A model generated the notes under the pieces. The model worked only from the letters and a program-made list of their open reading frames with translations, did no database searches and was not told where the DNA came from. Shown here one piece after another: positions 3,729 through 47,192 of a DNA stretch of 64,000 nt. The stretch covers positions 159 through 64,158 of the forward strand of contig JBKPTC010000031.1 of assembly GCA_046735355.1 (NCBI GenBank), written 5' to 3'. The position numbers and the translations under genes are program-made. Within the stretch, counting starts at the first letter, position 1; every line of letters begins with the position of its first letter. The stretch comes from a bacterium. GTDB taxonomy: Bacteria > Actinomycetota > UBA4738 > HRBIN12.

Positions 3729-4436
3729 ATGCGTGTTCGCCTTGCACTCGTCGCCGCGGTTGTAGCGGCCATCCTCGCACCCGGCCCCGCGATTGCTACG
3801 CCGAAGGCCAGTGGCGCCGATTCGGTGCAGCAGCCGACGTGCACGCTGCCGGAGTCTGATGCCGAAGCCCTCGTGATCCTTAGCAACTACTATCCGGGTT
3901 ACTGGTGGGACCACACGCACCTGACGATCGCTGTTCAGGCCTATCCAGGCATCTCGGACGAGTATCGGGAAGCGATCGACGATGCGATCGCCACGTGGGC
4001 CGGTGTTCTCCAGGAGTGCTTCGATGGCCTGATCACCCTGACCCAGGTGGATACTCGGCAGGAAGCCGACATCGTCGTTCACTACGTGCCGCATGCCGGT
4101 GGCGCGGTCTTCTCTGGGTACGCGATCTGTGGTGACCACGGATGTCCCAACATCCTCGTGAGCTCCGAGGCACCGCCGAGCTGGGGACAGGAGCCATATA
4201 GCCCCGAGCTTCTCGGTTGGATCACGCTGCACGAGGTCGGCCACGCTCTCGGCCTCGGCCACGCGACGAACCTGTTGGAAAGCACCGACCTGATGGGGTA
4301 CGGCTGGCCCGATCTCGGTGATCCGGTCCTATCTGATTGCGATGTCGATGCGCTCGCATTCGTGTTCGCTTGGGCACTTGCCGGTGAGGAACCACACCCA
4401 CCGGCTGAGGGTCCGTACGACTGTTCCATCAGCTAG
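3729..4436 (+). CDS. Secreted zinc metalloprotease, metzincin/matrixin-like.
   Basis: RBS aggaggga before ATG 3729. Signal peptide MRVRLALVAAVVAAILAPGPAIATPKA. HEVGHALGLGH matches the HExxHxxGxxH zinc-binding motif. Confidence 0.75.
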   Translation: MRVRLALVAAVVAAILAPGPAIATPKASGADSVQQPTCTLPESDAEALVILSNYYPGYWWDHTHLTIAVQAYPGISDEYREAIDDAIATWAGVLQECFDGLITLTQVDTRQEADIVVHYVPHAGGAVFSGYAICGDHGCPNILVSSEAPPSWGQEPYSPELLGWITLHEVGHALGLGHATNLLESTDLMGYGWPDLGDPVLSDCDVDALAFVFAWALAGEEPHPPAEGPYDCSIS

Positions 4437-4671: not shown

Positions 4672-5343
4672 TTAACCAGAAGTCCTGACCTCGACAACGC
4701 CGTCCAAAGACTGCAAACGCTCAACTAGCCCCTCGACGGAGCGGGAACCCTCAACGTCGAACCGAAGTCCGACGAGGTTCCGATCCGTATCCGAACGAGT
4801 CACATCGAGGTCTGAAATCACGTAGCCGATTGCGGTCGCTTCCGCCAAGACACGTCGCAGCACGCCCTCACGGTCGCGGTAGGATAGGTCGATGGGCGTG
4901 AGTGAACGCCTCGATTGGGGGAGGGCGCGTCCCAGCGGCGTGTAGACATACGCGACGAACAAGTGCGCCACGGTCGCTCCGATCGCGAGCGCGATCAAGC
5001 CAGCTCCAGCGGCCATCCCGACGGCCGCGGTGAGCCAGATCGCGGCAGCGGTGGTAAGGCCTCGCACACCGGCGCGTTTGACGAAGATTAGACCCGCCCC
5101 GATGAATCCGATGCCCGAGACGACCTGTGCGGCGACCCGTGAGGGGTCGAGGTTGACCGTTCCGGCCGATACCACGTCGCTAAAGCCGTACTTGCTGACG
5201 AGGACGAAGACAGCCGCTCCAACGCCGACGAGCGTGTGCGTGCGCAGTCCTGCGCTCTTCTGCCGCAGCTCCCGCTCTACCCCGATCACCGAGGAAAGCG
5301 CCAAGGCCAGGGCGAGGAGAGCGAGCTGGTGAAGCCAACCCAT
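4672..5343 (-). CDS. mgtC: MgtC/SapB family membrane protein.
   Basis: MGWLHQLALLALALALSSVIGVERELRQKSAGLRTHTLVGVGAAVFVLVS...GIGFIGAGLIF is the typical MgtC N-terminal membrane domain. A C-terminal soluble ACT-like tail follows. Confidence 0.85.
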   Translation of the reverse strand: MGWLHQLALLALALALSSVIGVERELRQKSAGLRTHTLVGVGAAVFVLVSKYGFSDVVSAGTVNLDPSRVAAQVVSGIGFIGAGLIFVKRAGVRGLTTAAAIWLTAAVGMAAGAGLIALAIGATVAHLFVAYVYTPLGRALPQSRRSLTPIDLSYRDREGVLRRVLAEATAIGYVISDLDVTRSDTDRNLVGLRFDVEGSRSVEGLVERLQSLDGVVEVRTSG

Positions 5344-5599
5344 CTGCGAAGCCTATCGTCGCACCAGGTGGCAGCGTCGTCGCGTGCCCGAGGGCCGTTA
5401 CGTCCCTGGGGTTGCCCTCGCCGGCGTCATACACCAGAGCCAAAGGGCGATCGACGGCACGTACAAAAGCCCTGACCGCCGATGAGTGACACGACCGCCG
5501 TAAGGGCGGTCACGGATGCGGCGACCCCCAAGACGGCTCGATGCTCGGGCCGCCACACCGCGAGATTGCCCCGGCGATTGCCGGATCAGGATGACCATG

Positions 5600-6027
5600 A
5601 CCGCTCGGGCTATCGCATTGAGGAGGCGATGGATCCACGACCGTGAGGATACCGAGCTCGAGCGCAGATCCCTCAAGGTACGTCCGGTCGCGCCGGATCG
5701 CAGCTCGACATTCCGCGAGTTCATTGGCCGTCACAAGCTCGGCTCGTACCTCTTCGGAGCGTGCGTGATCTCGTGGACAGGTGTCGTGCTGGCCGCAATC
5801 GCGCAGCCTTCCACTTTCGACGCGATACGAGCACCATTCCGATCCTGCTCGCGATGCTTCCCGGTCGGACCCTGTCCGCCCTCGCGGTGACCGCGATCTC
5901 CGACGGGAAAGCGGGGCTGCGGCAGCTGGCGGTCCGGCCCTTGTACTCCGGGACGGGTGACTCATGCACCCCTTTTGTCGTGCCCCGACGATGCCATCTG
6001 AACTCAGTTCGCGCCGTGCCGTGTTGA
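5600..6027 (+). pseudogene. Disrupted membrane-protein gene: two consecutive coding-like frames.
   Basis: Frame A reads MTARAIALRRRWIHDREDTELERRSLKVRPV...YLFGACVISWTGVVLAAIAQPSTF. Frame B continues IPILLAMLPGRTLSALAVTAISDGKAGLRQLAVRPLY. The frame changes near 5815-5835. Confidence 0.25.
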
Positions 6028-6057
6028 GGCGGCGCCCCCGTAGAAAGGAGAGGCGCC

Positions 6058-6498
6058 ATGGATGCAACGTTGCGACGCAGGCGCTCGTCGGCGCACATCG
6101 TTCGGCCAGTTGCCGTCGCAGCAGCCATCGGGGCGATCGTGGAGGCCGGTTTTCAGGCGGCGCTGGCAGTTGGGGCTCCGTTTGGCCGAGCATCGTGGGG
6201 CGGGCAGCCAACCCATCTTGCGACGGACCTTCGCGTGGCGAGCGGCATCGTAGCGTTCGTCTGGCTGTTCGTCGCGGCCGTAATACTGAAGCGCGGCGGG
6301 TTCGACGTGCGAGGAATGTCAACGACGTTGGCGTATCGCGCGACGTGGGTGATCTTCGCGTTCCTTGCGCTCGGGACCGTCATGAACCTCGCCTCCCAAA
6401 GCGCGCTCGAGCGTGCGATCTGGACGCCGTTCACGCTCGTTCTCGCAATCCTTACGTTCGTAATCGCTCGAAGTGAGCAGACTCGGACGCCACGGTAA
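6058..6498 (+). CDS. Hypothetical integral membrane protein (4 TM).
   Basis: Strong RBS aaaggagagg before ATG 6058. Hydrophobic segments VAVAAAIGAIVEAGF, IVAFVWLFVAAVIL, WVIFAFLALGTVM, FTLVLAILTFVIA. Confidence 0.65.
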   Translation: MDATLRRRRSSAHIVRPVAVAAAIGAIVEAGFQAALAVGAPFGRASWGGQPTHLATDLRVASGIVAFVWLFVAAVILKRGGFDVRGMSTTLAYRATWVIFAFLALGTVMNLASQSALERAIWTPFTLVLAILTFVIARSEQTRTPR

Positions 6499-6909
6499 GC
6501 GGGCCAGAGGAGCGATGCGCCTCCTCGATTTCCCGGAAGCGTCGTCACCTCGGCGACCGTACACGACGTGTGAACGCTGTCCCTAGCTCGCGAGCCGAAA
6601 CGGCGGGTGGTCGTCGACGATCCAACTCGTCGAGAATGCGCTTCGCCTTGGCGTGGGCCACCGGCCGCTCGCGCTTGTTGAACCAAAGGGCCGGGAATCG
6701 GCGAGACCTCCGGTTGGTCCGACGGGGCGCAAAGCTATCGACGCTCTCTTGCCGGCCTCAGTCGTCCGGAGGTCTCGTCTCGACCTGATCCTGGCGTCGT
6801 GTAACGCGTCGCGATCGGGTCTCTAGTCCTGCTCGTCATGGGTCCTTGCACCCGCGCTACGGAACCGGCTCAGCGAGAGGCTGACCCAGTTCTGCACGTG
6901 GAGGGCAAC

Positions 6910-7116
6910 ATGACACTAGGGCACAGCGTCGGCCACATGAACATCGCGATCACGGACTTCTCGCCGGTCGTTCAGGCGCCAGTGCGTCGATGCCCGAGGT
7001 GCGACGCCCATCTGTCCGCCCACAACACGGACAAGGTCTGCTATCCCTGTCAGCGAACGGAGATGCGAACGCGATGGGAGAACGGATCCCTGTCGCGCCG
7101 AGGTGCGATCCACTAG
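6910..7116 (+). CDS. Small zinc-ribbon protein (CxxC...CxxC).
   Basis: RBS ggaggg before ATG 6910. MTLGHSVGHMNIAITDFSPVVQAPVRRCPRCDAHLSAHNTDKVCYPCQRTEMRTRWENG. Confidence 0.35.
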   Translation: MTLGHSVGHMNIAITDFSPVVQAPVRRCPRCDAHLSAHNTDKVCYPCQRTEMRTRWENGSLSRRGAIH

Positions 7117-8295
7117 CGTCGGTGCCGCTTGTCGATCCGCGGCTGGACAACCGCGTCGGGCCGCACACGAGCCGCTACATCTGGTTGGACAATCTGCGCG
7201 TCGCGCTAATCGCAGCGGTCATCGTCGCACGTCGCAAGCACGTACGTCATAGACTCCGATTGGTACTACATGGAACGGACCACGGACCGGGTGACGCAGC
7301 TCGTCGTCGGCGTCGTCGTCCTCGTGGGCGGGCTATTCGGCATGGGGCTTCTGTTCCTCGTCGCGGGGCTTCTGACGCCATCTGCGCTCGACCGGAAAGG
7401 GGCCGCTCGGTTCGTCCGTGACAGGGCCGTGCGGCTCGGGATTCCGCTCGTGATCTTCGTCGCCGTCATCGACCCCCTCACCGATTACGTCGGTCATCGT
7501 GGCATGGGCGAAGCAACAGGCTTCGGACAGTACATGCACCTCTGGCTGGCTCGGGATGCGGACGCAGGACCGGCGTGGTTCATCGCCGACCTGCTCGTGT
7601 TCTCAATCGTGTACGCGCTCATCCGCGGAGTTCGACCAGCCACTCGGAGGTCTCGTGAACCGTTCGAACCCCGCCGCCTCCTCGCCGTCGGCGCCCTCAT
7701 CGCGGGCGGTTCCTTCTTGATTCGCATCGTGTGGCCGTTCATGTCCGACACGTTCTTCGGTCTCAACTTGTGGGAGTTCCCGCAGATGATCGGGATGTTC
7801 GCGCTCGGCGTGCTGGCCGCCGAGGCAGGCTGGAATGCGACATCGCTGCCGGTGAACCGGAAGAAAACCGTGGTGCAGGTGGCGATTGCGTCCCTCGTTG
7901 CGTTGCTCTGTTTTGCTGTTCTCGGAGCGTCCGCGGACGATGCCGGTCCGCTCCTGGGCGGCCTTCACATCCAGGCTCTGCCGTTGCCGATCATCGAAGC
8001 CGCCTGGGCTATCTCGATGTCGCTCGTCACCCTGGAGTACTTCCGACGCCGGGCCACCGTTTCGAGTCAGACCCTCGCCGGCGCTTCTCGAGCGTCATAT
8101 GACGCATATCTGCTGCACCCGCCTCTGATCGTCGTCCTCGCCGTCGCGTTGCGGACGTCGGGATTTTCCATTGGAACGAAGTTCGTCCTTGTCAGCATCG
8201 TCGGTGTTTCCTTGGCGTTCGTGATTGGGTGGATCCTGGCTCACGCCCGGAGCGACCACCTTTGGAGTCGCTCTCGAGTCGCTGGTCCGACGTGA
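7071..8295 (+). pseudogene. Acyltransferase family 3 (OatA/OpgC-like) membrane protein, with an apparent 1-nt frameshift near 7236-7245.
   Basis: Frame 1 (from ATG 7071) gives the family N-terminal motif RYIWLDNLRVALIAAVIVA. The next frame continues with HVASTYVIDSDWYYMERTTDRVTQLVVGVVVLVGG and runs to 8295 with about 9 more TM segments. Confidence 0.5.
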
Positions 8296-8389
8296 TGTCG
8301 TGGCGCGTGGCGTCGGATGGTCGTACCGAGCGAGCCCTTCCGCGCGTGGCTCGATGATCAGTGAAGCGCCGGAACCGCTGTCGCGGAGC

Positions 8390-8911
8390 TCACGTTGACG
8401 CGCTGGGCCGAACGAAGCTCGACGCGAGCTCAAGCGCTCTGCCGAACGACTCCACGAACCGCCGCTGCTGACCCGACCCCGGGAACGGAACCCGCTCGTT
8501 AACGACCGGGAGACGCGCCCGCTTCAGCGGCCAATAGGCCGCGTCGAACACCGTCGCCTTGATGACGATGATCGCGCGAGGATCGAGCTCCTGACACCGG
8601 ATGACGAGATCCGCGGCAAGGGACTCCAGCGACGCGCGACCGACAGGGTTGGGGCTCAAGTCGATCAAGAAAACGCCCCGGTCGCGCAGCTTCCCGAGAA
8701 GCGCGGCCTTGTTCGATCGAGTCGGCTCGTCGTTCAGTACTCCCCGTGCGACGTACCGGAACAGCGAGTCCTGCTCGGTCACGTTGTCGAAGTAGAAGTA
8801 GCGGTCGAGTGCGCTGGGTGGACCCTCGGCAACGAGGAGCAGATCGATCTCGGCCGGGCGGTATCGGGTCGCTGCTTCTTCTCGCCGTCGCCTGGCGTCA
8901 GCTCCGTCCAT
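8390..8911 (-). CDS. Conserved-looking hypothetical protein (173 aa); family not recognised.
   Basis: Non-repetitive, protein-like ORF: EIDLLLVAEGPPSALDRYFYFDNVTEQDSLFRYVARGVL...GVFLIDLSPNPVGRASLESLAADLVIRCQELDPRAIIVIKATVFDAAYWPLKRARLPVVNE. Confidence 0.5.
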   Translation of the reverse strand: MDGADARRRREEAATRYRPAEIDLLLVAEGPPSALDRYFYFDNVTEQDSLFRYVARGVLNDEPTRSNKAALLGKLRDRGVFLIDLSPNPVGRASLESLAADLVIRCQELDPRAIIVIKATVFDAAYWPLKRARLPVVNERVPFPGSGQQRRFVESFGRALELASSFVRPSAST

Positions 8912-9103
8912 CTCGCCCTGCCCTCTGCTCTGTCCTCGGCAACGTCTGGCGACCCCGACGCGGTCGCCTCATCACGGATACGTCTGGCGCCTCGATGAGG
9001 CACACGAATCCATCACGAAGCAGGACGGGCGCGAAGACGCGCTGGACCCCAGGTGCGATCAAGAAGAGGAGACGCCGTGGAGGACATCCTCGGCTGAGCG
9101 CGT

Positions 9104-9122
9104 GGCCCAAGATGGCCCCAAG
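9104..9122. repeat. Second copy of the GGCCC(C)AAG-at-GGCCCCAAG motif, spanning the ATG of the zinc-ribbon gene.
   Basis: ggcccaagatggccccaag preceded by cgcgtgg; compare 1184-1203. Confidence 0.6.
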
Positions 9123-9417
9123 AGCCGCGCTCGCCATTCTCGCCGATGAGTGGACGATCAAGGAACGACCCAGCGACGACCTCGTCGCTGCCCCGCGGGG
9201 GGTAAAGGATTGGCTGCTCCGGCAGCCCGCTGTCCTTCGTTCCAGTGACACGATCGTGATAGCGGCGGCCGGCTTCAAGGCTCAAACGTGGACGACGAGC
9301 CCCGGGACCGACTCGTGCGCATGCGGGGGTCAATGGGTCCGAAGGACACGCAGGAGCGACGGACACGAGTTCTTCGGGTGCTCCCGCCTCCCCGCATGCC
9401 GACGCACAAAAGCCTGA
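9112..9417 (+). CDS. Small protein (101 aa) with a C-terminal topoisomerase-type C4 zinc ribbon.
   Basis: MAPRAALAILADEWTIKERPSDD...DSCACGGQWVRRTRRSDGHEFFGCSRLPACRRTKA. The C-x-C...(F)FGCS..P.C pattern matches the zf-C4_Topoisom ribbon. The start lies inside the 20-bp repeat. Confidence 0.5.
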   Translation: MAPRAALAILADEWTIKERPSDDLVAAPRGVKDWLLRQPAVLRSSDTIVIAAAGFKAQTWTTSPGTDSCACGGQWVRRTRRSDGHEFFGCSRLPACRRTKA

Positions 9418-9718
9418 GCTTCGGATCACGCTTCGGCTGCCAACCATCTTGTACCTGGCCGGAGAGCTGGACATGGCCTCGGCCGACGAGCTCGTGAACG
9501 ACGTACTGGCTCGTGTGGACGGACAGCGCGACGTCGTGCTGGACCTGTCGGATCTGGAATTCGTCGACTCGACCGGCATGCGGGCCTTCTTGACGGTCGC
9601 CAAGTCAGTCGAGCCGCGCCCGGTCGTGCTTCGCGACCCACGACCTCATGTCGAGTATGTGCTCGATATCGTTCGGATCGAGACGTTCGGATTGCGGATA
9701 CAGCGGCCAGACGAGTGA
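9396..9718 (+). CDS. STAS-domain anti-sigma-factor antagonist, with an apparent frameshift near 9420 or an atypical start.
   Basis: C-terminal frame: ELRITLRLPTILYLAGELDMASADELVNDVLARVDGQRDVVLDLSDLEFVDSTGMRAFLTVAKSV, a canonical STAS fold. No ATG, GTG or TTG exists in this frame upstream of TTG 9449, although the conserved beta-1 strand is encoded upstream. ATG 9396 (MPTHKSLSF) is in the -1 frame. Confidence 0.5.
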
Positions 9719-9858
9719 TCGCCGTCGCTATGTGGCACTTCAGCCCCGATCGGCATATCGGGCACGACGAATGGGTGTCGCCCGTCGCGAAACGACTGGA
9801 CCATGGTGCCCCGGCAGGAAACGAACGAGCCGCTGCCGGTCCCGACACCTATGTCTGA

Positions 9859-11055
9859 TCATCTTTCTGAACTCACCGTTTCGACGAGCGGGCGAGCCAT
9901 CCCGCCGATGTTGTCGAACCCGTGGTTGCTTAGCACGACGACGACTGCGTGCGCGTCGGGGACGCACCCTGCCCACGCGACGTAGGCAGAGCCGGTGATG
10001 AACCCACCGGTATGCCCCACTGCCTCTGCGTACGGATCGGCCACGTTGTACAGCCCGAGCCCGTACCCCTCGTGGGTTGCCATCTCGGTCAGCGAAGCTT
10101 GGGAGACGATCTCGCCGGTGCAGAACGCCCGCCACCAGCGCGCCAGCGAAGGCGCGTCCGAGGCCAGGGCACCACCTGCTGCGCCGTCAGCGGATGCAGC
10201 AGCGAGGGATGGCAGGTAGCCTCCACCCTTCCTTAGCGCAGCCGCCGAGCGCCCGCTGGGCATCGCTATGGGCGGGGTCGGCTTCTCATCCGGTTGATAG
10301 ATGAGCCGGTCCGTCCCCTCGACGTCCAGGACGCCGTCGCGCAGGACGTCGCCCACCGGCCGCCCGCGGATGTGTTCGATGACCAGCCCGAGGAGCTGGT
10401 AGTTGGCGTTCGCGTACTCGAACGACTCACCGGCGGGAGCGCGCTCCGCGGGGACGAGCTTCAGCGCGTCGGCGGGGGTCCAGAACCGTCGCGGATGCGC
10501 AGACAGACGGGGGTCTTCGATCTCGAAGTTGGTCTCAGGGATGCCACTGCGCTGGCCGAGCAGCTGACGGATCGTCGCCCCATTCGTGTCGAAGTGGAGG
10601 TCGGCAGGGAGGTGCTCACTCGCCGGGTCGTCGAGGTCGAGTTCACCGGCCTCGACCATCTGCATCACTTGGGCCGCGATCACGGACTTCACGACGCTGT
10701 GGATCGCGAACTGATCGTCGACCCGTACGTCTCGGACGCCGTCGGCCTTGCCGGTCGCTCCGCTCCAGGTTCCGTCGGCGGACATCACCGTGGCCGCCAT
10801 CCCGGTTCCGCGGGCCATCTCGTTCAAGGCCGCCTGGAACTCCGACGCCGCCTTGGGAGAGACCGCGTCCTCGCTGATGTCGGCGAACGCCTCGGTCGGG
10901 AAGCTCTCGACCGCTTCACTCGGGAGGTCCGAGGCAACCGGGGTCGCCGACGGCTCCGCCGGGACTGTCGTGCCGGTGTCGTTCGAGGTCGACGTGCACG
11001 CGCCCAGCGTGACAACGAGGGCCAACCCCAAGACGCTCCCGAGAAGATTCTTCAT
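9859..11055 (-). CDS. Serine hydrolase of the beta-lactamase/transpeptidase superfamily; lipoprotein.
   Basis: RBS ggtggagg before ATG (complement of 11053-11055). Lipobox MKNLLGSVLGLALVVTLGAC. SxxK (HSVVKSV), YxN (YANANY) and HTG motifs are present. Confidence 0.8.
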   Translation of the reverse strand: MKNLLGSVLGLALVVTLGACTSTSNDTGTTVPAEPSATPVASDLPSEAVESFPTEAFADISEDAVSPKAASEFQAALNEMARGTGMAATVMSADGTWSGATGKADGVRDVRVDDQFAIHSVVKSVIAAQVMQMVEAGELDLDDPASEHLPADLHFDTNGATIRQLLGQRSGIPETNFEIEDPRLSAHPRRFWTPADALKLVPAERAPAGESFEYANANYQLLGLVIEHIRGRPVGDVLRDGVLDVEGTDRLIYQPDEKPTPPIAMPSGRSAAALRKGGGYLPSLAAASADGAAGGALASDAPSLARWWRAFCTGEIVSQASLTEMATHEGYGLGLYNVADPYAEAVGHTGGFITGSAYVAWAGCVPDAHAVVVVLSNHGFDNIGGMARPLVETVSSER

Positions 11056-11102
11056 CCCGGCCTCCACCGCGATCCGGTCACCGTTAGTGGTGCTTCGCCC
11101 GC

Positions 11103-11882
11103 CTAGGGAGATCTGGAAGGGTTCGACGCGTCGAGCGCCTCCTCCGGGCGCAGCTCGACCGTCTTGAGGAGCCCCCCGCGGCCCCAAAACCAGTGCGTGT
11201 CGTAGGTTTCGAGGAGACGCCGCTCGTCCGCGACGTGGAGGTAGATGAAGTAGCCGCGTGTCTCCGTCGCGACGGTCAGGACGATCCCGCGCGCACCGCC
11301 TCCCTCACCGCAGTACTCGAACCATGCTTCGTTGCCTTGGAAACCGTTGCCGCTGCCTCCGCCCCCACCCCGCGTACACATACCGGGCGGGAAATCGGGC
11401 AGGTTTGTCCAGTCCATTGGCGACTTGCCGCCGAGGGGCGCGGAGACCAGGGCGATGTAGAGATCATCCCGAAGCTGCGGGTCGAAGATGACGTCGACGT
11501 CGGACGCGTCGAAGGCGAGTTCGCCGTGACCCCAGGGCTCGGTCGCCGCCCGCGTCCGCCAGCCGGACGGGTAGCCGATGGAGAGACCGTTTAGCGGCGA
11601 GTCGAACCGCTCCGTGAACGAAGACGGCTGCGTGACGGGCGACGATGCCACCGGCGACGGAGACGCCGCGGGACCGATCACCGCTCCGCGTTCGGATGCG
11701 AGCAGCCGGACTAGCCCGACCGCCGCGAAGGCGAACACCGCGATGCCGAGGACGCCTGCCGCAACCCGCTGGTTCCGGCGCTTGTGATCGCGGCGGCGAA
11801 GTAGGGCGTCGTAGGGGTGGTCGGGCGCATCGATGCTCATCGCCGCCCGCTTGGCCCTGTCGAGGATCTCCTGGTCATTCAT
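11103..11882 (-). CDS. Putative anti-sigma factor: single-pass membrane protein with an extracytoplasmic domain.
   Basis: Start overlaps the sigma gene stop by 8 bp. Cytoplasmic N-terminus, TM segment VAAGVLGIAVFAFAAVGLV, then a Gly-rich extracellular domain. Confidence 0.5.
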   Translation of the reverse strand: MNDQEILDRAKRAAMSIDAPDHPYDALLRRRDHKRRNQRVAAGVLGIAVFAFAAVGLVRLLASERGAVIGPAASPSPVASSPVTQPSSFTERFDSPLNGLSIGYPSGWRTRAATEPWGHGELAFDASDVDVIFDPQLRDDLYIALVSAPLGGKSPMDWTNLPDFPPGMCTRGGGGGSGNGFQGNEAWFEYCGEGGGARGIVLTVATETRGYFIYLHVADERRLLETYDTHWFWGRGGLLKTVELRPEEALDASNPSRSP

Positions 11883-12399
11883 CGCCGGTCTCCCTTGCGA
11901 AATGCGCTCTCGCCTGAGCCACGAGGGATCGGACGGTAGACTCCTTCACACCGAGCACGGCTCCCGCGTCGTGATAGGCGAATCCCTGGATACCTGTGAG
12001 GACGATCGCTTCGCGTTGACGCATGGTCAGTCCTAGCAGGAGACGCACGGCGCTCTCGCGTTCAGCGAGCTGTTCGAACGGGTCGCTCCCGGCTCGACCT
12101 GGCGCGAGCACGCGCTTGGCGGCGAGCCGTGATCGACGGTAGAGGCTGCGGTAGGCGTTTAGGGCCGTGCGATACAGGTAGCCCTCGAGGTCCGCCACGC
12201 CGTCCAGCTGGTCCCATCGCTCGAGCATCTTGAGGAACGCTGCCTGAGCCACGTCCTCCGCCTCCTCCTTGCTCCCCGAGAGAAGGAGCAGCGACCTGAA
12301 GAGCTGGTCCCATTCGGCGGCGAAGAACGCCTCGAACGAGGTCTCCTCGGCGTCCTCTGCATCGTGGGTCAACGGGATCTGCCTTGGCTGGGTTTCCAT
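11875..12399 (-). CDS. ECF (sigma-70 family) RNA polymerase sigma factor.
   Basis: FEAFFAAEWDQLFRSLLLLSGSKEEAEDVAQAAFLKMLERWDQL matches region 2. TMRQREAIVLTGIQGFAYHDAGAVLGVKESTVRSLVAQAR matches region 4. RBS ggagtg before ATG 12399. Confidence 0.8.
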   Translation of the reverse strand: METQPRQIPLTHDAEDAEETSFEAFFAAEWDQLFRSLLLLSGSKEEAEDVAQAAFLKMLERWDQLDGVADLEGYLYRTALNAYRSLYRRSRLAAKRVLAPGRAGSDPFEQLAERESAVRLLLGLTMRQREAIVLTGIQGFAYHDAGAVLGVKESTVRSLVAQARAHFARETGDE

Positions 12400-12430
12400 C
12401 ACTCCATGGACGCTCGAGCGACACCTCATG

Positions 12431-12460
12431 TGTAGAGCGTCCGGTGGTTTCTTGGTCCTA
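12431..12460 (-). promoter_or_regulatory. Candidate ECF-type promoter (GGACCA-N15-CTCTAC) about 35 bp upstream of the sigma gene start.
   Basis: Minus-strand reading gives aGGACCAagaaaccaccggacgCTCTACacatg. The same CTCTAC hexamer with a GG-rich -35 sits upstream of the second ECF sigma gene at 42311-42340. Confidence 0.3.
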
Positions 12461-13021
12461 TTCGCGCGGATTTGCGTGAGCGTGCGTCAGTACCGGCTCG
12501 CGTTCGGGTGGACTCGGCGGGCCTATTCCTTGTCGTAAACGCCCTGGTGGCCGCTCTGACCACTCCTCCGCCTCGTTGTAAAGCTGTCCGATCAGAACGG
12601 CGATCTCGCTGACCACGGCCCTGCGCCACGGAGAGCGCTGCCGCCACGTCTCTGCCAACGTCACACTCGACGGCGGTGAGCCCGAAGGAACGAGCCGACA
12701 GCGCGGACCCTAGACCGTTCGCCGTCTCGCGGCGATGACCGACGTGGCTGTCGACCGAACCAACGGCCGACGGGCTCGGATCTGGACGGGTCTGACGCGG
12801 TCATGATCGCCGACGCCCCCTACGGCGGGTGTCAGGGAACCAACGTGGACCGATCTACGAGTCGCCGTCGTGGTCGCCGGACGGAAGCGAGGACGAGTAC
12901 TCGTTCGAGTTCGTGAACCAGTCCGACATGACGATCGACGAGGGCGGGCCGGTGATGTGCAACGCGAGAGCGGGCGAGGCGTGGCCCCGTCGAGCCGCCA
13001 CGCCTCGCGTCGAAGGACACC

Positions 13022-13318
13022 TCACCGCTGCCGTGACGCGTCGCGGAGCGCCTTCGAGTAACCGGACAGGTGCTGGCGAACCGGCGGAGCCAGACGGTTC
13101 ATCGCGGGGAACACCTTCGATCCGACGCCCGGGTTGGCTAGACCGCTCACGGACAGCACCCGCGCGTTCGAATGCGCCGGCGCGGTGGCCGTACTCGTCG
13201 CGCGGCCCGCGAAAACCCCGGCGGCGACCGACAGGACGAGCAGCATTACGACCGCGATCAGGTGCGAGCGCCGCACCACCGAACCTCCGACACCAATCGT
13301 CGCGCCCTGTGCGCTCAT
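13022..13318 (-). CDS. Small membrane-anchored or secreted protein (98 aa).
   Basis: Strong RBS ggaagggggg before the ATG. MSAQGATIGVGGSVVRRSHLIAVVMLLVLSVAAGVFAG signal-anchor. The overlapping plus ORF 12829-13359 is coding-like only in its first ~200 nt. Confidence 0.5.
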   Translation of the reverse strand: MSAQGATIGVGGSVVRRSHLIAVVMLLVLSVAAGVFAGRATSTATAPAHSNARVLSVSGLANPGVGSKVFPAMNRLAPPVRQHLSGYSKALRDASRQR

Positions 13319-13447
13319 GGCTCCCCCCTTCCGTCTCGAGCTACCTGCGCGCAGGTTGACGACCGCCCCTCAACCGACACGCAAGGACGGCTCAAGCCCG
13401 GGCTTGAGGCATGGCGTCGAGCGTGAGGCTGGTGCATCCTGTCGACA

Positions 13448-16400
13448 ATGCCCACCGCCGGAACCGCCGCTGACGTGGAGTTTCGCCTCCTCGGGCCGCT
13501 GGAGGCCGCGGCCGACGGCGGCGCCCCGATCGCGCTCGGCAGCGCCAAACCGCGGGCGTTCCTGACGATCCTGCTGCTGCGGGCCGGCGAGCTCGTCTCG
13601 CGCGACCGCCTGATCGAGGACATCTGGGGCGAGGACGCGCCGGCGACGGCGGGACACAGCCTCGAGGTGTACGCGTCGGGGATCCGCAAGGCGCTCGGGC
13701 CCGGCGGTGCGGCACTCGTCGCGCGTTCGGGCGCCTACGTCCTCGACGTCGAGCGCGACGCGATCGACGTCACGCGGTTCGAGCGCCTGGCCGCCGAGGG
13801 GCGGGTCGCGCTCGGCGAGGGCGACGCATCACGCGCGCTCGAGCGCCTGGCGGCAGCACTCGCGCTGTGGCGGGGGCCGGCGCTCGCCGACGTCGCGTAC
13901 GAGTCGTTTGCGCAGGCCGAGATCGCTCGGCTGGATGAGCTGCGGCTCTCCGCGATCGAGGACCGCATCGAGGCCGAGCTCCGGCTCCGACGCCACGCCG
14001 AGCTCGTCGGCGAGCTCCGCGCCCTGGCCGCGGCCAACCCGGTCCGCGAACGACTGACGGGGCAGCTGATGCTCGCGCTATATCGGACGGGCCGCCAGGC
14101 CGAAGCACTCGACGTGTACCGCTCGGCGCGCGATCGGCTCGCGGACGAGCTCGGGATCGACCCCTCGCCCGAGCTCCGTGCGCTCGAGACGGCGATCCTG
14201 CGGCAGGCGGACGAGCTCGACGTCCCGGACGCCGCCGGGGCCGGGGCCGCCGGCGCTCGCGAGGCGCCCGGCGAGGACGACGTTCCACACGCACGCGAGG
14301 TCCGCAAGGTGGTGTCGGCGTTGTCGATCCACCTCGATATGCGCGCGGCGGACGGTGGCGCCCTCGATCCCGAACGCCGGCGGAGCGTCTCGGCGAGCGT
14401 GAGCGAGATCGTTTCCAGGGCGGCCGAGCGCGCAGGCGGCCACACCACGACGAAAGCGGGCGCGTCCGTCCTCGTATTCGGCGTCCCGCGCGTACACGAG
14501 GACGATGCGCGCCGGGCGCTCGTCGCGGCGTTCGCGATCCGGGATGGCGTGCGCGGCGCCGCGGCTGACGCGGCGAGCGTCCTCGCGCTCGATGTCCGGA
14601 TCGGCGTCGACACGGGCGAGGTGATCGCCTCGCCGAACGACCAGGGGATGCTCGACAGCGACGTCGTCGTATCGGCGGGTGATCTGGCGCGCGCCGCGCC
14701 GCCCGACGAGATCGCGATCGGCGACCGGACGCGCCGGATGCTGGCCGACGACGTCGTCGTCGACGAGGCGGCCATGGAGGGTGGTTCCAGGCCCCCGTTT
14801 CTCGTCCGATCGGTTTCGCCGGTGCCGCGACGTCCGACGCCGGGCGGCGCGCGGTCGGACATCGTCGATCGGACCGAGGAGCTCGCGCTCGTCCTCGGCG
14901 TGCTCGAGCGCGCGCGGGCCAACGCGTTGAGCCACCTGTTTACGATCCTCGGGTCCCCTGGGATCGGGAAGAGCCGGCTGATCGACGAGGTCGTTGGGCG
15001 GGCGCGCGACTCGGCGAAGGTCCTGACCGGACATTGCCTGCCGTTCGGCGACGGCATCACGTTCTGGCCGGTCGCCGAGGCCGTTCGCGAGGCGGCCTCG
15101 ATCACCGACGCCGACGACGCCGGGCAGGCGATCGAGAAGATCCGGGCGCTTGTCGCGTCACAGCCGGACGCGCAGATGATCACCGACGCGATCGCGCGGT
15201 TGCTCGGTCTGTCGGCCGAGCCGTCCTCGGCCGGCGAGGCGCAACGCGCCGTCCGCCGGCTGCTCGAGACGCTAGCGCTCGACCGGCCGTTGGTATTCGT
15301 CATCGAGGACCTGCATTGGGCCGAGCCGACACTGCTCGATCTGCTGACGAACGTCGTCGACCGCGCGACGGATTCGGCGTTGCTCGTGCTGTCCACCGCG
15401 CGGCCGGAGTTCCTCGACGCGCATCCGGAGTGGGGCGCTCGCCGGGCGAACGCCGCGAGCGTGCTGCTGGAGCCGCTCTCCGCCGACGACAGTTCGGAGC
15501 TGCTCGGCCGGCTGCTCGAGGGATCCGACCTGCCGTCCGACGTGGCGCAGCAGGTCCTCGCCGCCGCCGACGGCAACCCGCTGTTCATCGAGCAGATCCT
15601 GTCGATGCTGATCGACACCGGCGTGCTCTCACGCACCGACGGCGGCTGGCGAGTGTCCGGCATCGTCGCGCCGATCCCGATCCCGCCGACCCTCCAGTCC
15701 CTGCTCGCGTCGCGGCTGGACCGGCTGACGCCGCATGAGCGCGAGGTGGTGCAGCTGGCCGCCGTGATCGGCAAGGAGTTCCGGGCCGACGACGTTCTGG
15801 CGCTCGCCGAGCGGGGCACCGGAGCCGATCTCGACGACGTCCTCGCCTCGCTCGTCGACAAGGAGTGGCTGCGCCGCGACCGGGTGGCTCGCGCCGACGG
15901 CGCGTACCGCTTCCGCCACGTGCTGATGCAGGTCGCCGCGTACGACGCCATGCCGAAGGCGGAGCGGAGCGAACTGCACGAGCGGCTCGGCTCCTGGCTC
16001 GAGCACACGGCGGGCGAGCGGATCGCCGAGCTCGAGGATCTCGTCGGCCACCACCTTGCGCAGGCGGCGCGCTATCGACTCGAACTCGGCCTCGACGACG
16101 ACGCGACGCGCTCGCTGTCCGATCGCGCGGCCAGACGCCTGCGCGCCGCGGGTGATCGAGCGTTCCTGCGCGGCGACATGCCGGGCGCCGTCGCGCTGCT
16201 GTCGGCGGCCGCCGACCTGTTCGCGCCCGACGACGCCGAGCGGATCACGCTGCTGCCCAGACTCGGGACGGCGCTCGTCGAGATCGCGCGGTTCGACGAC
16301 GCGCTCCGGACGCTCGACGAGGCGTGGGAGCGGTCAACGGCGGCGGGCGACATCGCAACGAGGGCCGACACGCTCTTCTACCGGACGGAGCTCCGCTCGT

Positions 16401-17326
16401 GGTTCGGCACCGTTGACCACGACGAGACCAGGGCGTACGCGCGGTCGATGCTTGCGGAGCTCGACCCGCGGATGGACGGAGCGATCGCCCGCTGCCACAG
16501 GATCCTGGCGATCTTCGCGAGCGACGTGCGGACCTACGGTCGGGAAGCGGAGCTCGCGATGTTCCATGCGCACCGCGCGGGAGACCGGCTTCACGAACTC
16601 GAGATTCTCCAGAACCTCGCCGACGTGGCGTCGGCGCTGAACCATCCGATCGGGACCGCGCTCGAGGCGTGCGACACGCTCCTCGACATCGCCGGACAGG
16701 ACGCCGTCGCCGGCAATGCCGTGCGCGTCATCGCCCTCGGCCCACTGCTAGCCTTCGCCGGGCGTTTCGACGAGGCCCGAGCTGCGATCCGAACGGCGCT
16801 CGACGCGTTCGAGGAGCTGGGGCTCGAGCTTTGGGCGGCGGACAGCGGCGCCGGCGGCGCGGCCGACGTCGAATGGCTCGCCGGGGACCTTCGGGCGGCC
16901 GCCGGTTTCGCGGAGGCCGGTGTGCGAGCACTCGATGCGATGGGCGCGCACGGCTCGACCCGCCGGCACCTGGCTCGAGCCGCCCGCGTGGCGTACGCGG
17001 ATGGACGCCTGCGCGACGCCGAGGAGCACGTGCGCCTCGGACGCGAACGGGAGGCCAGATCCGCGCTCGGCGTGGACGCGATGCTCCGGGCGCGGCGCGG
17101 CGATCCGAGCGGCGAGGCTCCGCTCCGTTTCTGGCTCGACGGGTACGGCCGGATGCCCGAGGGTGAACGCCTCGAGACGATGATGGAGCTCGCCGAGGTC
17201 CTCCACCTCACCGGGAGATATGGCGAGGCGCGTACCATCGTGCGCGACGTCGTCGAACGTGCAGAGAGGCGTGGGGACGTTGCGACCCCGCGCCTCATCG
17301 CGCGCTGGATCGAGCGCTGGCGCTAG
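13448..17326 (+). CDS. Large AfsR/SARP-family regulator: OmpR-type winged helix plus BTAD, a cyclase-homology-like domain, an NB-ARC/AAA P-loop ATPase, and TPR repeats.
   Basis: N-terminus RLLGPLEAAADGG...AFLTILLLRAGELVSRDRLIEDIWGE (DNA-binding) then the BTAD helices. RKVVSALSIHLDMRAA...VLVFGVP...RIGVDTGEVIA matches a class III cyclase fold (second metal Asp absent). ILGSPGIGKSRLIDEV is a Walker A. A long TPR-like helical C-terminus follows. Confidence 0.85.
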   Translation: MPTAGTAADVEFRLLGPLEAAADGGAPIALGSAKPRAFLTILLLRAGELVSRDRLIEDIWGEDAPATAGHSLEVYASGIRKALGPGGAALVARSGAYVLDVERDAIDVTRFERLAAEGRVALGEGDASRALERLAAALALWRGPALADVAYESFAQAEIARLDELRLSAIEDRIEAELRLRRHAELVGELRALAAANPVRERLTGQLMLALYRTGRQAEALDVYRSARDRLADELGIDPSPELRALETAILRQADELDVPDAAGAGAAGAREAPGEDDVPHAREVRKVVSALSIHLDMRAADGGALDPERRRSVSASVSEIVSRAAERAGGHTTTKAGASVLVFGVPRVHEDDARRALVAAFAIRDGVRGAAADAASVLALDVRIGVDTGEVIASPNDQGMLDSDVVVSAGDLARAAPPDEIAIGDRTRRMLADDVVVDEAAMEGGSRPPFLVRSVSPVPRRPTPGGARSDIVDRTEELALVLGVLERARANALSHLFTILGSPGIGKSRLIDEVVGRARDSAKVLTGHCLPFGDGITFWPVAEAVREAASITDADDAGQAIEKIRALVASQPDAQMITDAIARLLGLSAEPSSAGEAQRAVRRLLETLALDRPLVFVIEDLHWAEPTLLDLLTNVVDRATDSALLVLSTARPEFLDAHPEWGARRANAASVLLEPLSADDSSELLGRLLEGSDLPSDVAQQVLAAADGNPLFIEQILSMLIDTGVLSRTDGGWRVSGIVAPIPIPPTLQSLLASRLDRLTPHEREVVQLAAVIGKEFRADDVLALAERGTGADLDDVLASLVDKEWLRRDRVARADGAYRFRHVLMQVAAYDAMPKAERSELHERLGSWLEHTAGERIAELEDLVGHHLAQAARYRLELGLDDDATRSLSDRAARRLRAAGDRAFLRGDMPGAVALLSAAADLFAPDDAERITLLPRLGTALVEIARFDDALRTLDEAWERSTAAGDIATRADTLFYRTELRSWFGTVDHDETRAYARSMLAELDPRMDGAIARCHRILAIFASDVRTYGREAELAMFHAHRAGDRLHELEILQNLADVASALNHPIGTALEACDTLLDIAGQDAVAGNAVRVIALGPLLAFAGRFDEARAAIRTALDAFEELGLELWAADSGAGGAADVEWLAGDLRAAAGFAEAGVRALDAMGAHGSTRRHLARAARVAYADGRLRDAEEHVRLGREREARSALGVDAMLRARRGDPSGEAPLRFWLDGYGRMPEGERLETMMELAEVLHLTGRYGEARTIVRDVVERAERRGDVATPRLIARWIERWR

Positions 17327-17968
17327 TCCGCGTCGGGAACTCGGCCTCGTCCGCCATGATGCCACGGGGCAACCCGGCCGACCGCAACGGTGCGAACGAC
17401 GTCCTGCAATCCCACAGCCCGAGTCGAGCGAGCTACCGGTCTCCGGAGACACGTCCCGACGACGGCGCCCGCTCACGCCAACCAGCCGAACAAGCGTCCG
17501 ATCGAGCAGTCCTCAAGGCGATTGGCGGAGCACCGTCCGGAGCCGATCCTCGAGCGTGCGATCAGGACGGAGGCCGTCACGCCGGTACCGCTCGGCGTCT
17601 TCGACCAACGACGCGCGCTTGGAGCGGATCAGCTCGCGGGCTGTCAGAGCGGCGCGTGTCCGGGCGTAGAAGTCTCCACCGCCGGCGGCGTCGAGCCAGA
17701 CGGGGTGCTTTGCATCGCCTCGGTCGACGCGAACCGGAGACCGCACGGCGCGGCGAGCAGGCGGAGCGGGATTTCCATGGGTGATGCCGATCGCTCACAC
17801 GAACGGCTGCCGCTCTCGATCGAAGAGCAGCTCCATTCGACGCGATCGCCCAAGAACGTCACGCTGAAACGTGATCACCGCGACGTTCGTTCAAAGGAGC
17901 GCAATCAGCGACGGCCAGTCGGCCACTCGTCGTTGTCGAGCGGCACCGGGCGAGCGGTGTCCGGCGTC

Positions 17969-18013
17969 GTGCCCCCGGCAGGAATCGAACCTGCGACACG
18001 CGGTTTAGGAAAC
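17969..18013. repeat. 45-nt near-perfect direct copy of the 3' end (T-arm, acceptor, anticodon arm) of the tRNA-Arg gene at 38596-38667. Putative distal att site of a ~20.5-kb island.
   Basis: gtgcccccggcaggaatcgaacctgcgAcacgcggtttaggaaac matches 38595-38638 at 44/45 with a 1-nt insertion. Same orientation as the tRNA. Confidence 0.7.
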
Positions 18014-18199
18014 GGCATTGCGCCGTGCGCCGCTTGCGCCGCATCAGGCACTGCGCAACCCGAGGGGCGCTTCGAACATACGTTCGGTTTCGCTCTGACT
18101 TGCAAAAAATGCTCCACGCGCGGTGACGCGGTGCTTCCACGCGGTCGACCGACGCATCGACCGTCGCGCGGTGGAGAATGCACCGGCGTGGGCGAGACG

Positions 18200-19204
18200 A
18201 TGCTGGCGGCCCGGTTCCTGGGTGACCGGAAGGTGCGGATCGAGGACGTCGACCGTCCTCGGCCCGGCGACGGGGAGGTGCTCGTGCGCGTCGACACGTG
18301 CGCGCTCTGCGGGACCGACCGCCGGACCTGGCTCGAGGGGTCGGAGCAGATCCCGGGCCACGAGGTGTCGGGAACCGTCGCCGCGGTCGGTCGCGGCGTT
18401 CCCGAGGCGATCGCCGAGGGCGCCCGCGGGGTGGTGTATCTCGTTGCCTCGTGCGGCGGGTGCGCGGCCTGCGCGATCGGCGCGCCCAATACCTGCCTAC
18501 GGAAGCGGGCGACGTACGGGTTCAGCGCGCCTGGCGGGTTCGCGGAGTACGTCGCCGTTCGCGCCGATTGCTTCCTCCCGGTGGACGAGGCGATCCCCCT
18601 CGACGCCGCGACGAGCCTGCTCGACCTCTTCGGAACCACGACGCATGCGTTCGTCCGGGCGGGGCGCTCCGCGATCGGGTCCGTCGCGGTGATCGGATGC
18701 GGACCGATCGGCCTCGGTGCCATCGCCGTCGCCAGGAGGCTGCGCGTGCCCGTGATCCTCGGCGTCGACACGTCCGGGTACCGCCTCGACCTCGCCGCGA
18801 GGCTCGGCGCGGCGCCGCTCGACGTCGGTCTGGCCGATCGGGAGGTCTCGGCCCGTCGCGTCTCACCGGACGGCTTCGACGTGGTGATCGAGGCGGCAGG
18901 AACGACCTCGTCCCAACGAGCCGCCATCGACGCCTGCGGTCCCGGGGGCGTCGTCGTGGCGGTCGCCCACAGCGACCGGCCTCTCGAGCTCTGGACGTCG
19001 TCGGATCTCATCTCGGTCGAGCGAGCGATCGTCGGCTCCGAGTACTTCCCGCCGACCGTGTTCGCGGGGGTGCACGAGGCGCTTCGCACCGGCGCGCTCG
19101 ACCCGGCGCCGATCCTGACGCACCGGTTCCCGCTCGAACGGATCGCCGAGGCGTGCGAGACGTTCTTCGGAGGCGAGAGCGGGAAGGTGTTGGTCCGTCC
19201 GTGA
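18200..19204 (+). CDS. Zn-dependent alcohol dehydrogenase (MDR family).
   Basis: MLAARFLGDRKVRIEDVDRPRPGDGEVLVRVDTCALCGTDRRTWLEG...GHEVSGTV shows the catalytic Zn motif GHE. CGGCAACAIGAPNTC is the structural Zn site. AVIGCGPIGLG is the Rossmann motif. Confidence 0.85.
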   Translation: MLAARFLGDRKVRIEDVDRPRPGDGEVLVRVDTCALCGTDRRTWLEGSEQIPGHEVSGTVAAVGRGVPEAIAEGARGVVYLVASCGGCAACAIGAPNTCLRKRATYGFSAPGGFAEYVAVRADCFLPVDEAIPLDAATSLLDLFGTTTHAFVRAGRSAIGSVAVIGCGPIGLGAIAVARRLRVPVILGVDTSGYRLDLAARLGAAPLDVGLADREVSARRVSPDGFDVVIEAAGTTSSQRAAIDACGPGGVVVAVAHSDRPLELWTSSDLISVERAIVGSEYFPPTVFAGVHEALRTGALDPAPILTHRFPLERIAEACETFFGGESGKVLVRP

Positions 19205-38488: not shown

Positions 38489-38595
38489 TGATGGCCACCG
38501 CTGTCCGCTTACCTTGTACGCCAGCGGTTATGTGCTGGGTCCGTCGAGTCTGGACGAGACCGGTCCGATCAGCGACGCAAAGCCGCTGGTGGAGG

Positions 38596-38667
38596 TGCCC
38601 CCGGCAGGAATCGAACCTGCGCACGCGGTTTAGGAAACCGCTGCTCTATCCACTGAGCTACGAGGGC
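38596..38667 (-). tRNA. tRNA-Arg (anticodon CCT).
   Basis: Reverse complement GCCCTCG-TA-GCTC-AGTGGATA-GAGC-A-GCGGT-TTCCTAA-ACCGC-GTGC-GCAGG-TTCGATT-CCTGC-CGGGGGC-A folds into a canonical cloverleaf. The 7-bp acceptor has one G-U pair. T-loop TTCGATT. Anticodon loop T-T-CCT-A-A. Confidence 0.85.
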
Positions 38668-47079: not shown

Positions 47080-47192
47080 GCGGCACCCGTTCCCGAAGAG
47101 GGCCGCGGCGAACCGCGCCTCGCGTGCGACGGGCCACGATCGCATGGGTCGTCCGACCGCGCGCAGCGCGACGCGGCTGCGATGCTGTCGCT

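Follow-up and report, generated by a model that had tools for sequence, protein, structure and literature searches.

The locus described here raises two questions, namely what a cyclase-like domain is doing inside a large transcriptional activator, and which genes that activator serves. It lies in a 64,000-nucleotide stretch of actinobacterial DNA (contig JBKPTC010000031.1 of assembly GCA_046735355.1; the whole stretch is hereafter called the window), where the gene for a 1292-amino-acid (aa) regulator adjoins a block of sugar-utilisation genes. A preliminary description of this DNA, made from the sequence alone, had read the protein as a SARP-type regulator with a degenerate cyclase domain, and had asked whether it controls the sugar block. 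We consider another answer reasonably probable, that is, a signal-gated SARP activator with a pseudo-cyclase module, acting on a local three-heptamer candidate operator to drive a small divergent gene, itself, or both. The regulator gene and the parts of its product are the following.

13448 to 17326, plus strand: regulator gene (SARP, cyclase-homology, STAND ATPase, TPR-like), from the open reading frame (ORF) list and translation, stop codon included
13541 to 13705, plus strand: OmpR-type winged-helix DNA-binding domain, aa 32-86 (Pfam Trans_reg_C, E = 7.8e-8)
13763 to 14200, plus strand: BTAD (bacterial transcriptional activation domain), aa 106-251 (Pfam, E = 6e-49)
14303 to 14767, plus strand: degenerate class III cyclase-homology domain (CHD), aa ~286-440 (family alignment, profiles, AlphaFold2 and Foldseek)
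14870 to 15388, plus strand: STAND-type P-loop NTPase (AAA_16), aa 475-647 (Pfam, E = 1.8e-17)
15956 to 17323, plus strand: C-terminal all-alpha TPR-like solenoid, aa ~837-1292, about 22 helices (AlphaFold2)

The ORF runs from an ATG to a stop codon and shows a G+C content of 0.89 at third codon positions versus 0.51 at second positions, the coding signature typical of the window DNA (~70% G+C). Long antisense ORFs lying over it, such as one of 757 aa at 13735-16008 on the minus strand, were rejected, being without a coding-type distribution of G+C over codon positions. Since an identical 1292-aa protein is also recorded in an NCBI assembly, the third-position pattern and the database record together establish the ORF as genuine, in agreement with the preliminary description. 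Its product displays, in order, an OmpR-type winged helix-turn-helix (HTH) followed by a BTAD (together the SARP head), a class III CHD, an AAA_16-type STAND ATPase and a TPR-like solenoid. No LuxR/GerE HTH was found in the protein by Pfam, and in the AlphaFold2 model the solenoid reaches the last residue.

The N-terminal assignment, already made in the preliminary description, was upheld by Pfam and by solved structures. The BTAD model is covered end to end (positions 1-146 of 146), the whole SARP domain spans aa ~10-270, and the structures of the AfsR SARP domain (8hvr; aa 10-255, E = 4.2e-46) and of EmbR (2fez; E = 4.6e-38) both match this head. Full-length AfsR chains in the PDB search align to the protein exclusively within aa 10-272, and in NCBIfam aa 4-268 match AfsR. 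By sequence, the protein thus has the OmpR-type winged helix followed by a BTAD that characterises the SARP family.

Recognition of the cyclase domain required more than the protein itself. Searched alone, it matches Pfam Guanylate_cyc at E = 0.3, which is under the gathering threshold, and PDB cyclases at a marginal E = 0.027 (phmmer). As such single-sequence searches are too weak, the call rests on profiles and structure, built from an alignment of the 120 best homologues and then from a 25-sequence subset over aa 278-472. The 25-sequence family profile retrieved from the PDB the cyclases Cya2 (2w01; E = 4.7e-32) and CyaB (3r5g; E = 4.8e-26). A second profile, made exclusively from the protein and eight degenerate orthologues, still matched class III cyclases (E = 4.9e-12, positions 285-441), so that the match is not borrowed from canonical members. 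The AlphaFold2 model of aa 278-472 (predicted local distance difference test, pLDDT, 89.6; predicted template modelling score, pTM, 0.85) had, in a Foldseek search of the PDB, nothing but class III cyclases among its first 50 matches (E ~1e-10, TM-score ~0.7), and the domain is collinear with the cyclase part of NCBIfam TIGR03903, within model positions 283-900. The modelled domain thus displays the beta-alpha-beta-beta-alpha-beta core of the cyclase-homology fold. The domain proposed in the preliminary description is therefore recovered by family profiles, AlphaFold2 and Foldseek, Pfam alone being insufficient.

Canonical family members read RKIVTVVFIDIAEST...HGGTVEKYIGDAVLAVFGIP..HEDDA.RA...TGNAVNVASRLE, the ordinary class III cyclase pattern, and the register of the catalytic positions was set against these members and Cya2. 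The six functional positions, which are D, K, D, T, N and R in intact relatives, are H295, T335, A339, D403, V408 and D412 in the window protein. Both metal-binding aspartates are thus replaced (by H295 and A339), as are the transition-state asparagine (by V408) and the arginine (by D412), and the substrate-specifying pair (Lys, Asp/Thr) has become T335 and D403. The preliminary description held that the first metal aspartate was kept in the motif IHLDMRAA; this proved to be an error of register, because the metal position is H295 (compare VVFIDIAEST) and D297 of IHLD sits two residues downstream of it. Loss of the GD of the second metal site, which it had also reported, was confirmed, G338-A339 standing in its place, and V408 and D412 extend the damage to the asparagine and arginine. 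With all four catalytic positions lost, the CHD is a pseudo-enzyme, almost certainly non-catalytic on sequence grounds, as the preliminary description had supposed. A residue census found equal degeneracy in all eight close orthologues.

Mean pairwise identity among the orthologues amounts to 52% in the CHD, 32-33% in the flanking linkers and 61-73% in the other domains; conservation well above that of the linkers indicates that the domain is under constraint, and hence a retained pseudo-enzyme rather than a decaying spacer. A separate observation concerns the motif FG.P..HEDDA.RA (aa 344-357), which varies little or not at all across the 120 relatives, catalytically dead ones included. More conserved than the catalytic positions, it may have a structural or interface role peculiar to the cyclase-ATPase-TPR chassis.

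In the ATPase, Walker A (GSPGIGKS, aa 502-509, nucleotides 14951-14974; P-loop GSPGIGKSRL, aa 502-511) and Walker B (VFVIEDLHW, aa 616-624; LVFVIEDLHW from 615) are both intact. The AlphaFold2 model of aa 473-1292 (pLDDT 92.9) consists of an alpha/beta NTPase, a winged-helix arm and ~22 paired helices. Its top Foldseek match is the STAND-TPR protein 6mfv (E = 2.2e-11), other fold matches being Avs3, CED-4, plant NLRs and MalT, while the solenoid matches the TPR/SUPR domains of LGN, OGT and MalT. The long TPR array of the preliminary description is accordingly seen in the model and its fold matches, although Pfam reports within it a single weak TPR_12 (aa 1242-1275). Walker A and B, the helical/winged-helix arm and a repeat sensor, the hallmarks of STAND proteins, are all present in the modelled structure, and by analogy the solenoid is presumed to be the sensor. 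The P-loop had been assigned to an NB-ARC/STAND ATPase; of this the STAND part stands and the NB-ARC part does not, given that Pfam finds no NB-ARC (PF00931) match in the protein at E ≤ 1 and reports AAA_16 in its place. The missing NB-ARC match, together with the restriction of the AfsR alignment to the SARP region, places the ATPase in the AAA_16/LAL-type STAND clade.

The protein resembles several known systems in part. Mycobacterium tuberculosis Rv0386, Rv1358 and Rv2488c carry a class III cyclase, an AAA_16-type STAND ATPase, TPRs and a C-terminal LuxR HTH, Rv0386 being an active cyclase. The window protein shares this central chassis and its order, homology of the chassis being shown via TIGR03903, and differs from the Rv0386 type in its N-terminal SARP, which takes the place of the C-terminal LuxR/GerE domain, and in the loss of the catalytic residues; the mycobacterial likeness pointed out in the preliminary description is thus well founded. 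With the TOMM kinase/cyclase fusion described by TIGR03903, aa 280-889 are collinear over model positions 283-900 (E = 2e-72), albeit at 244.6 bits versus a cut-off of 705.75; here the SARP replaces the Ser/Thr kinase, and there is no TOMM context. AfsR, a large, NLR-like SARP of Streptomyces, likewise has a SARP head, a STAND NTPase and then TPRs, but the ATPase of our protein is not of the NB-ARC type and only aa 10-272 align. PH0952 (6mfv, the best fold match) and MalT pair a STAND ATPase with a TPR sensor, to which the window protein adds the SARP head and the CHD; by analogy with STANDs of this type, the sensor repeats are likely to gate nucleotide-dependent oligomerisation. Finally, the SARP-LALs of Streptomyces (PimR, the archetype, with SanG, PolR, PteR and FilR) join an N-terminal SARP to a LAL or 'guanylate-cyclase-like' ATPase half and, like our protein, are devoid of a C-terminal LuxR domain (PMC10972967). 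PimR, compared here by its description only, is described without a cyclase signature (PMC3367932), in contrast to the CHD of ~155 residues found here; the window protein further departs from the PimR type in lying outside any secondary-metabolite cluster (window and orthologous contigs), and in having as conserved neighbour a 98-aa membrane protein and not a PAS-LuxR regulator. Overall, the regulator fits best among the SARP-LAL-like or large SARP proteins, as one that retains a pseudo-cyclase domain; it is a variant on known kinds.

Homologues at E ≤ 1e-10 number more than 5000 proteins, of which the best 120 were taken for a census of the family. All of these 120 (1191-1498 aa) contain BTAD and AAA_16, none contains GerE, and 39 have a precomputed Guanylate_cyc match; many bear the JGI name 'SARP family transcriptional activator / class 3 adenylate cyclase'. 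The rarity implied by the preliminary description was therefore overstated, the architecture being common to all of the best 120 of more than 5000 matches and, judging from the sequences, common in uncultured Actinomycetota. The complete hexad D-K-D-T/V-N-R is kept in 10 of the 120 (P0011 among the intact relatives), and of about 27 SARP-type relatives that could be evaluated on genome and metagenome contigs, 7 have it as well; the L088 and L090 proteins are likewise intact, whereas the family members of Actinoplanes sp. NPDC051861 (L008) and of CPCC 206377 (L066) have degenerate CHDs. Scans of such contigs, with the orthologue alignment, gave relatives of at most 43% identity and zero new orthologues. 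Hosts in the genome scan were Gaiellaceae, Thermoleophilia, Solirubrobacterales, Actinoplanes, Acidimicrobiales and Chloroflexia, and Ensifer was seen to hold SARP-less versions. One relative (P0034, 1482 aa) has two tandem CHDs, the first preceded by ELPTGVVTFMLTDIEDSSGLW; some members are ~200 aa longer, and in two (P0051 and P0060) tandem cyclase domains are apparent from length alone. A literature search returned no account of a SARP-cyclase fusion (a 2004 survey of actinobacterial cyclases, PMC2447327, whose body text this search did not cover, mentions BTAD and AfsR); the SARP-CHD-STAND-TPR proteins are a large family for which that search found no characterised member.

Which genes the regulator might control was approached through its upstream region, of which the features are given below.

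13022 to 13318, minus strand: divergent small-protein gene, 98 aa (translation; alignment of six orthologues)
13353 to 13358, minus strand: -10-like hexamer CAACCT (NANNNT), its A and T invariant (alignment columns 44 and 48)
13368 to 13396, plus strand: candidate SARP operator, heptamers CCTCAAC / ACGCAAG / GCTCAAG (conservation and resemblance to the PimR heptamers)
13431 to 13442, plus strand: invariant 12-mer GGTGCATCCTGT with -10-like CATCCT (13435-13440), invariant in nine loci

Of the genes around the regulator orthologues, only the small one is conserved as a neighbour. At every orthologous locus a Pfam-negative gene of 92-106 aa lies divergently, 120-140 bp upstream of the regulator (129 bp in the window). 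The 98-aa protein consists of a short N-terminal tail, one hydrophobic helix (RRSHLIAVVMLLVLSVAAGVFAGR) and a C-terminal part of ~60 aa, and the six aligned orthologues share MSAQGATIG.GGS.VRR, the hydrophobic helix and then ...LSGYS.... A search of 5.8 billion proteins gave only 17 homologues, all devoid of Pfam domains, which makes this family about as narrow as the regulator orthologue clade. The small gene was also considered as a partner for the wider regulator family and rejected as such, as tblastn over 166 loci matched orthologue loci only. Downstream of it in the window and on the same strand, 11103-12429 holds an extracytoplasmic function (ECF) sigma gene (11875-12429) and an overlapping Pfam-negative ORF of 259 aa. 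Control of the small gene might alternatively lie with an ECF sigma factor; this link was dropped, such a gene being present in the window and in one further locus (L168) and inconsistent across the others.

The intergenic region was aligned over nine orthologous loci, six of them distinct. It contains three copies of a heptamer NC(T/G)CAA(G/C) with 4-bp spacers, and hence 11-bp phasing. All three copies keep the core C(T/G)CAA unchanged in every one of the nine loci, the proteins of which share only 53-78% identity. The small-gene start codon and Shine-Dalgarno sequence are likewise invariant. The triple-heptamer motif occurs once in the 64-kb window, versus 0.01 expected by chance. Between pimR and the divergent pimM lie three copies of CGGCAAG, 4 bp apart, to which PimR binds and from which it activates pimM (PMC3367932), and CGGCAAG with 4-bp spacers is the consensus of PimR, SanG and PolR (PMC3367932, PMC5930380). 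The candidate site shares with the PimR site its three heptamers, its spacers and its position in a region common to the regulator and a divergent neighbour.

On the small-gene side, the hexamer CAACCT lies 8-9 bp past the proximal heptamer (minus strand), with zero indels between the two in any locus, a spacing in keeping with the rule that SARP boxes, direct repeats to which two AfsR protomers bind, lie 8 bp upstream of the -10 element (PMC11301090). This hexamer is a possible, though weak, candidate for the small-gene promoter. On the regulator side, CATCCT lies 7 nt before the ATG, and the GGTGCATCCTGT region is, by its position only, probably the promoter from which a leaderless regulator mRNA starts; the repeats stand at a variable distance from this -10, 38 to 41 bp as counted from alignment gaps. 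A consensus sigma-70 scan of the intergenic region found no promoter, an activator-dependent, high-G+C promoter not being expected to match.

Further repeats were noted in this region. A perfect 18-bp palindrome, CTCAAGCCC/GGGCTTGAG at 13391-13408, is made up of heptamer 3 and an inverted copy; most orthologous loci have at this position a heptamer-like element in direct orientation, the fourth of the series (GCTCACG, or GCTCAAG in L003; spacing 10-11 bp), so that the inversion is specific to the window. Between the heptamers and the small gene, an inverted repeat ACCTGCG/CGCAGGT (13343-13356) overlaps the proposed -10 hexamer, and at the equivalent position of L002 and L004 each subgroup has an inverted repeat of its own sequence (AGGGGGA...TCCCCCT in L002). 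This repeat near the small gene could be a second operator or a 5' untranslated region hairpin.

The wider family has comparable arrangements. A triple 5-mer repeat at 11-bp spacing is found within 200 bp upstream of the regulator in 13 of 36 loci. With any other spacing between 7 and 15 bp the count falls to 0-2 loci, and among background windows the share is 0.6%. More distant family members (L018, L033, L087, L090, L094, L097 and L098) show 3-4 direct repeats of this spacing within 100 bp upstream of their own gene, with clade-specific sequences (GGCTTCC, GCTTCAG, GCCAAAG, GTAACG). In several (L018, L033, L087, L097 and L098) a TANNNT directly adjoins the boxes, immediately ahead of the regulator start codon, so that binding upstream of the own gene looks like a family trait. 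These sequence patterns suggest widespread autoregulation with co-evolving operators.

The activator reading put forward at the outset would work as follows. The TPR-like solenoid would sense a ligand or a partner, upon which the AAA_16 STAND ATPase would exchange nucleotide and oligomerise, as in MalT, AfsR and other NLR-like regulators, with the dead cyclase domain, whose fold functions as a dimer in every class III cyclase studied, now used for dimerisation or allosteric control. Two or three SARP heads would thereby be brought onto the three 11-bp-phased heptamers and would recruit RNA polymerase to the small-gene promoter, to the regulator's own promoter, or to both. AfsR offers a parallel in that it activates afsS, the gene for the small protein AfsS (bioRxiv 10.64898/2026.09.02.748808). 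Several points weigh against this scheme. The heptamers match the PimR orientation on the plus strand, towards the regulator gene, while the -10 spacing favours the small gene, which makes the target ambiguous; with six independent orthologous loci, the weight of short-motif invariance is limited; the role given to the CHD in dimerisation or allostery rests on the general biology of the fold, and the AlphaFold2 models were built from alignments containing canonical cyclases. In L168, moreover, a 52%-identical small gene follows an ECF sigma/anti-sigma-like pair (5324-7315), with no SARP orthologue beside it, the AAA_16 protein nearby not being an orthologue. The sugar block would, under the scheme, be a separate tRNA-Arg-flanked insertion and not a target.

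That the regulator controls this adjacent block is, in our judgement, highly improbable. The block does adjoin it, at ~0.9 kb from the stop codon (17326) to the first island gene (18191), a gap of 864 bp without convincing coding signal, and no LacI, ROK or GntR-type regulator was seen among the island ORFs scanned. The genes 3' of the regulator encode a zinc-dependent alcohol dehydrogenase, a GFO/IDH/MocA oxidoreductase, a GH1-like protein, a galactokinase and an ABC sugar transporter, and further island genes a xylose-isomerase-like protein, GH2, an epimerase, GH43 and a MalK-like ATPase. An intact tRNA-Arg(CCT) gene lies at 38594-38667 on the minus strand, however, and a 46-nt near-identical copy (one indel) of its 3' part lies 20.6 kb away, at 17967-18013 on the same strand; this fragment was not called by ARAGORN, and was recognised via translation and confirmed by alignment. 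The direct repeats bracketing 18014-38593 resemble att sites and are like the classic footprint of a tRNA-integrated island, although no integrase was seen among the window ORFs scanned, and the bracket leaves the regulator outside the inserted block. At least six further distinct loci yielded orthologues of the regulator (53-78% identity) together with flanking DNA, and the sugar island was not found beside these orthologues. Their downstream genes are unrelated in every case (PAP2/BBE/DAGK, AlkZ-like, class III cyclases, a DZR-cyclase-ATPase paralogue, GerE). The preliminary description had proposed co-occurrence with the island across genomes as a check on control of the island; orthologues occur without it, the outcome that it had itself named as speaking against the link. 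Neither a three- nor a two-heptamer match exists within the island, and no characterised SARP is known to us to act on sugar catabolism (for a review of SARPs, see PMC10972967). On these sequence comparisons the regulator should be annotated apart from the sugar island, and locally it most likely acts on the divergent small gene, on its own gene, or on both.

Two other explanations concern the cyclase domain and the heptamers. According to one, the CHD keeps a pocket for a nucleotide or small ligand (such as ATP or cAMP), or forms a pair with a true cyclase, so that the protein is a cyclic-nucleotide-linked transcription factor. The intact hexads found in part of the family imply that the ancestral state was an active cyclase fused to a SARP, and the FG.P..HEDDA.RA motif persists even in catalytically dead members; genuine cyclases with Ad_Cy_reg and Guanylate_cyc domains, moreover, flank the regulator in two orthologous loci (L002 and the P0122 contig), the former also having a cyclic nucleoside monophosphate (cNMP)-binding protein near the regulator (these genes of L002 lie at 505-1713, 3914-4345 and 10884-12080). 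Such neighbours hint at a link to cAMP signalling in some loci. In the window protein, however, the canonical pocket is dismantled, the metal aspartates, the asparagine, the arginine and the substrate lysine all being gone, no cyclase or cNMP-binding gene lies near the regulator in the window, and most orthologous loci are without neighbouring cyclases, all of which makes this explanation unlikely for the protein studied here. The other would have the heptamers as the site of another regulator, or as mere promoter elements, with the protein's targets elsewhere in the genome, for example in a biosynthetic gene cluster. It draws on the fact that most characterised SARPs control secondary-metabolite clusters (PMC10972967), on the distant targets of AfsR, and on the operator assignment itself, which is based on resemblance and conservation only in a window that shows part of the genome. 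Set against this are the lack of a biosynthetic cluster in the 64-kb window or the orthologous contigs, the co-occurrence of the small gene with the regulator orthologue clade, and the 11-bp-phased triple repeats upstream of many family members, whose differing heptamers are what co-evolving self-operators would be expected to show. Distant targets in place of local ones thus appear distinctly unlikely, and we retain the local activator with its pseudo-cyclase module as the preferred reading.

The remaining observations concern the surroundings of the gene pair. The ~600-bp stretches on either side of it (12430-13021 and 17327-17966) hold no convincing ORF and no Rfam match, an Rfam scan of 12400-18300 having returned none; a 77-aa ORF at 17513-17746 on the minus strand has a plausible-looking end, ...ARELIRSKRASLVEDAERYRRDGLRPDRTLEDRLRTVLRQSP. 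In L004, the regulator is followed at 8055-11591 by a 1178-aa paralogue made up of a zinc ribbon (DZR), a cyclase, AAA_16 and TPRs, which on sequence is the same chassis with a different N-terminal module. Elsewhere in the window, and unrelated to the regulator, 45937-47190 (minus strand) encodes a release-factor-like protein of the baeRF family 2 / acVLRF1 type beside an MFS transporter.

Large SARPs and SARP-LALs are levers for silent antibiotic pathways, and the role of their non-DNA-binding halves is poorly understood. The present comparison brings the cyclase-ATPase-TPR-LuxR proteins of mycobacteria together with the TOMM kinase/cyclase fusions and with the SARP-LALs of Streptomyces, as one modular chassis with swappable effectors, and the family provides a natural series on the reuse of pseudo-enzymes in transcription control and on a possible coupling of some SARPs to cAMP. 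We also advance, tentatively and with less than even confidence, a wider proposal: that activators of this family carry their own class III cyclase, active-looking in ~10-25% of the sampled members and a pseudo-enzyme switch in most; that in the window this has become a circuit for a lineage-specific small membrane protein, working via a PimR-like operator; and that the family is the intermediate behind the 'guanylate cyclase' homology of the SARP-LALs. If this is true, a single protein would, in the active-looking members, both make a cyclic nucleotide and activate transcription.

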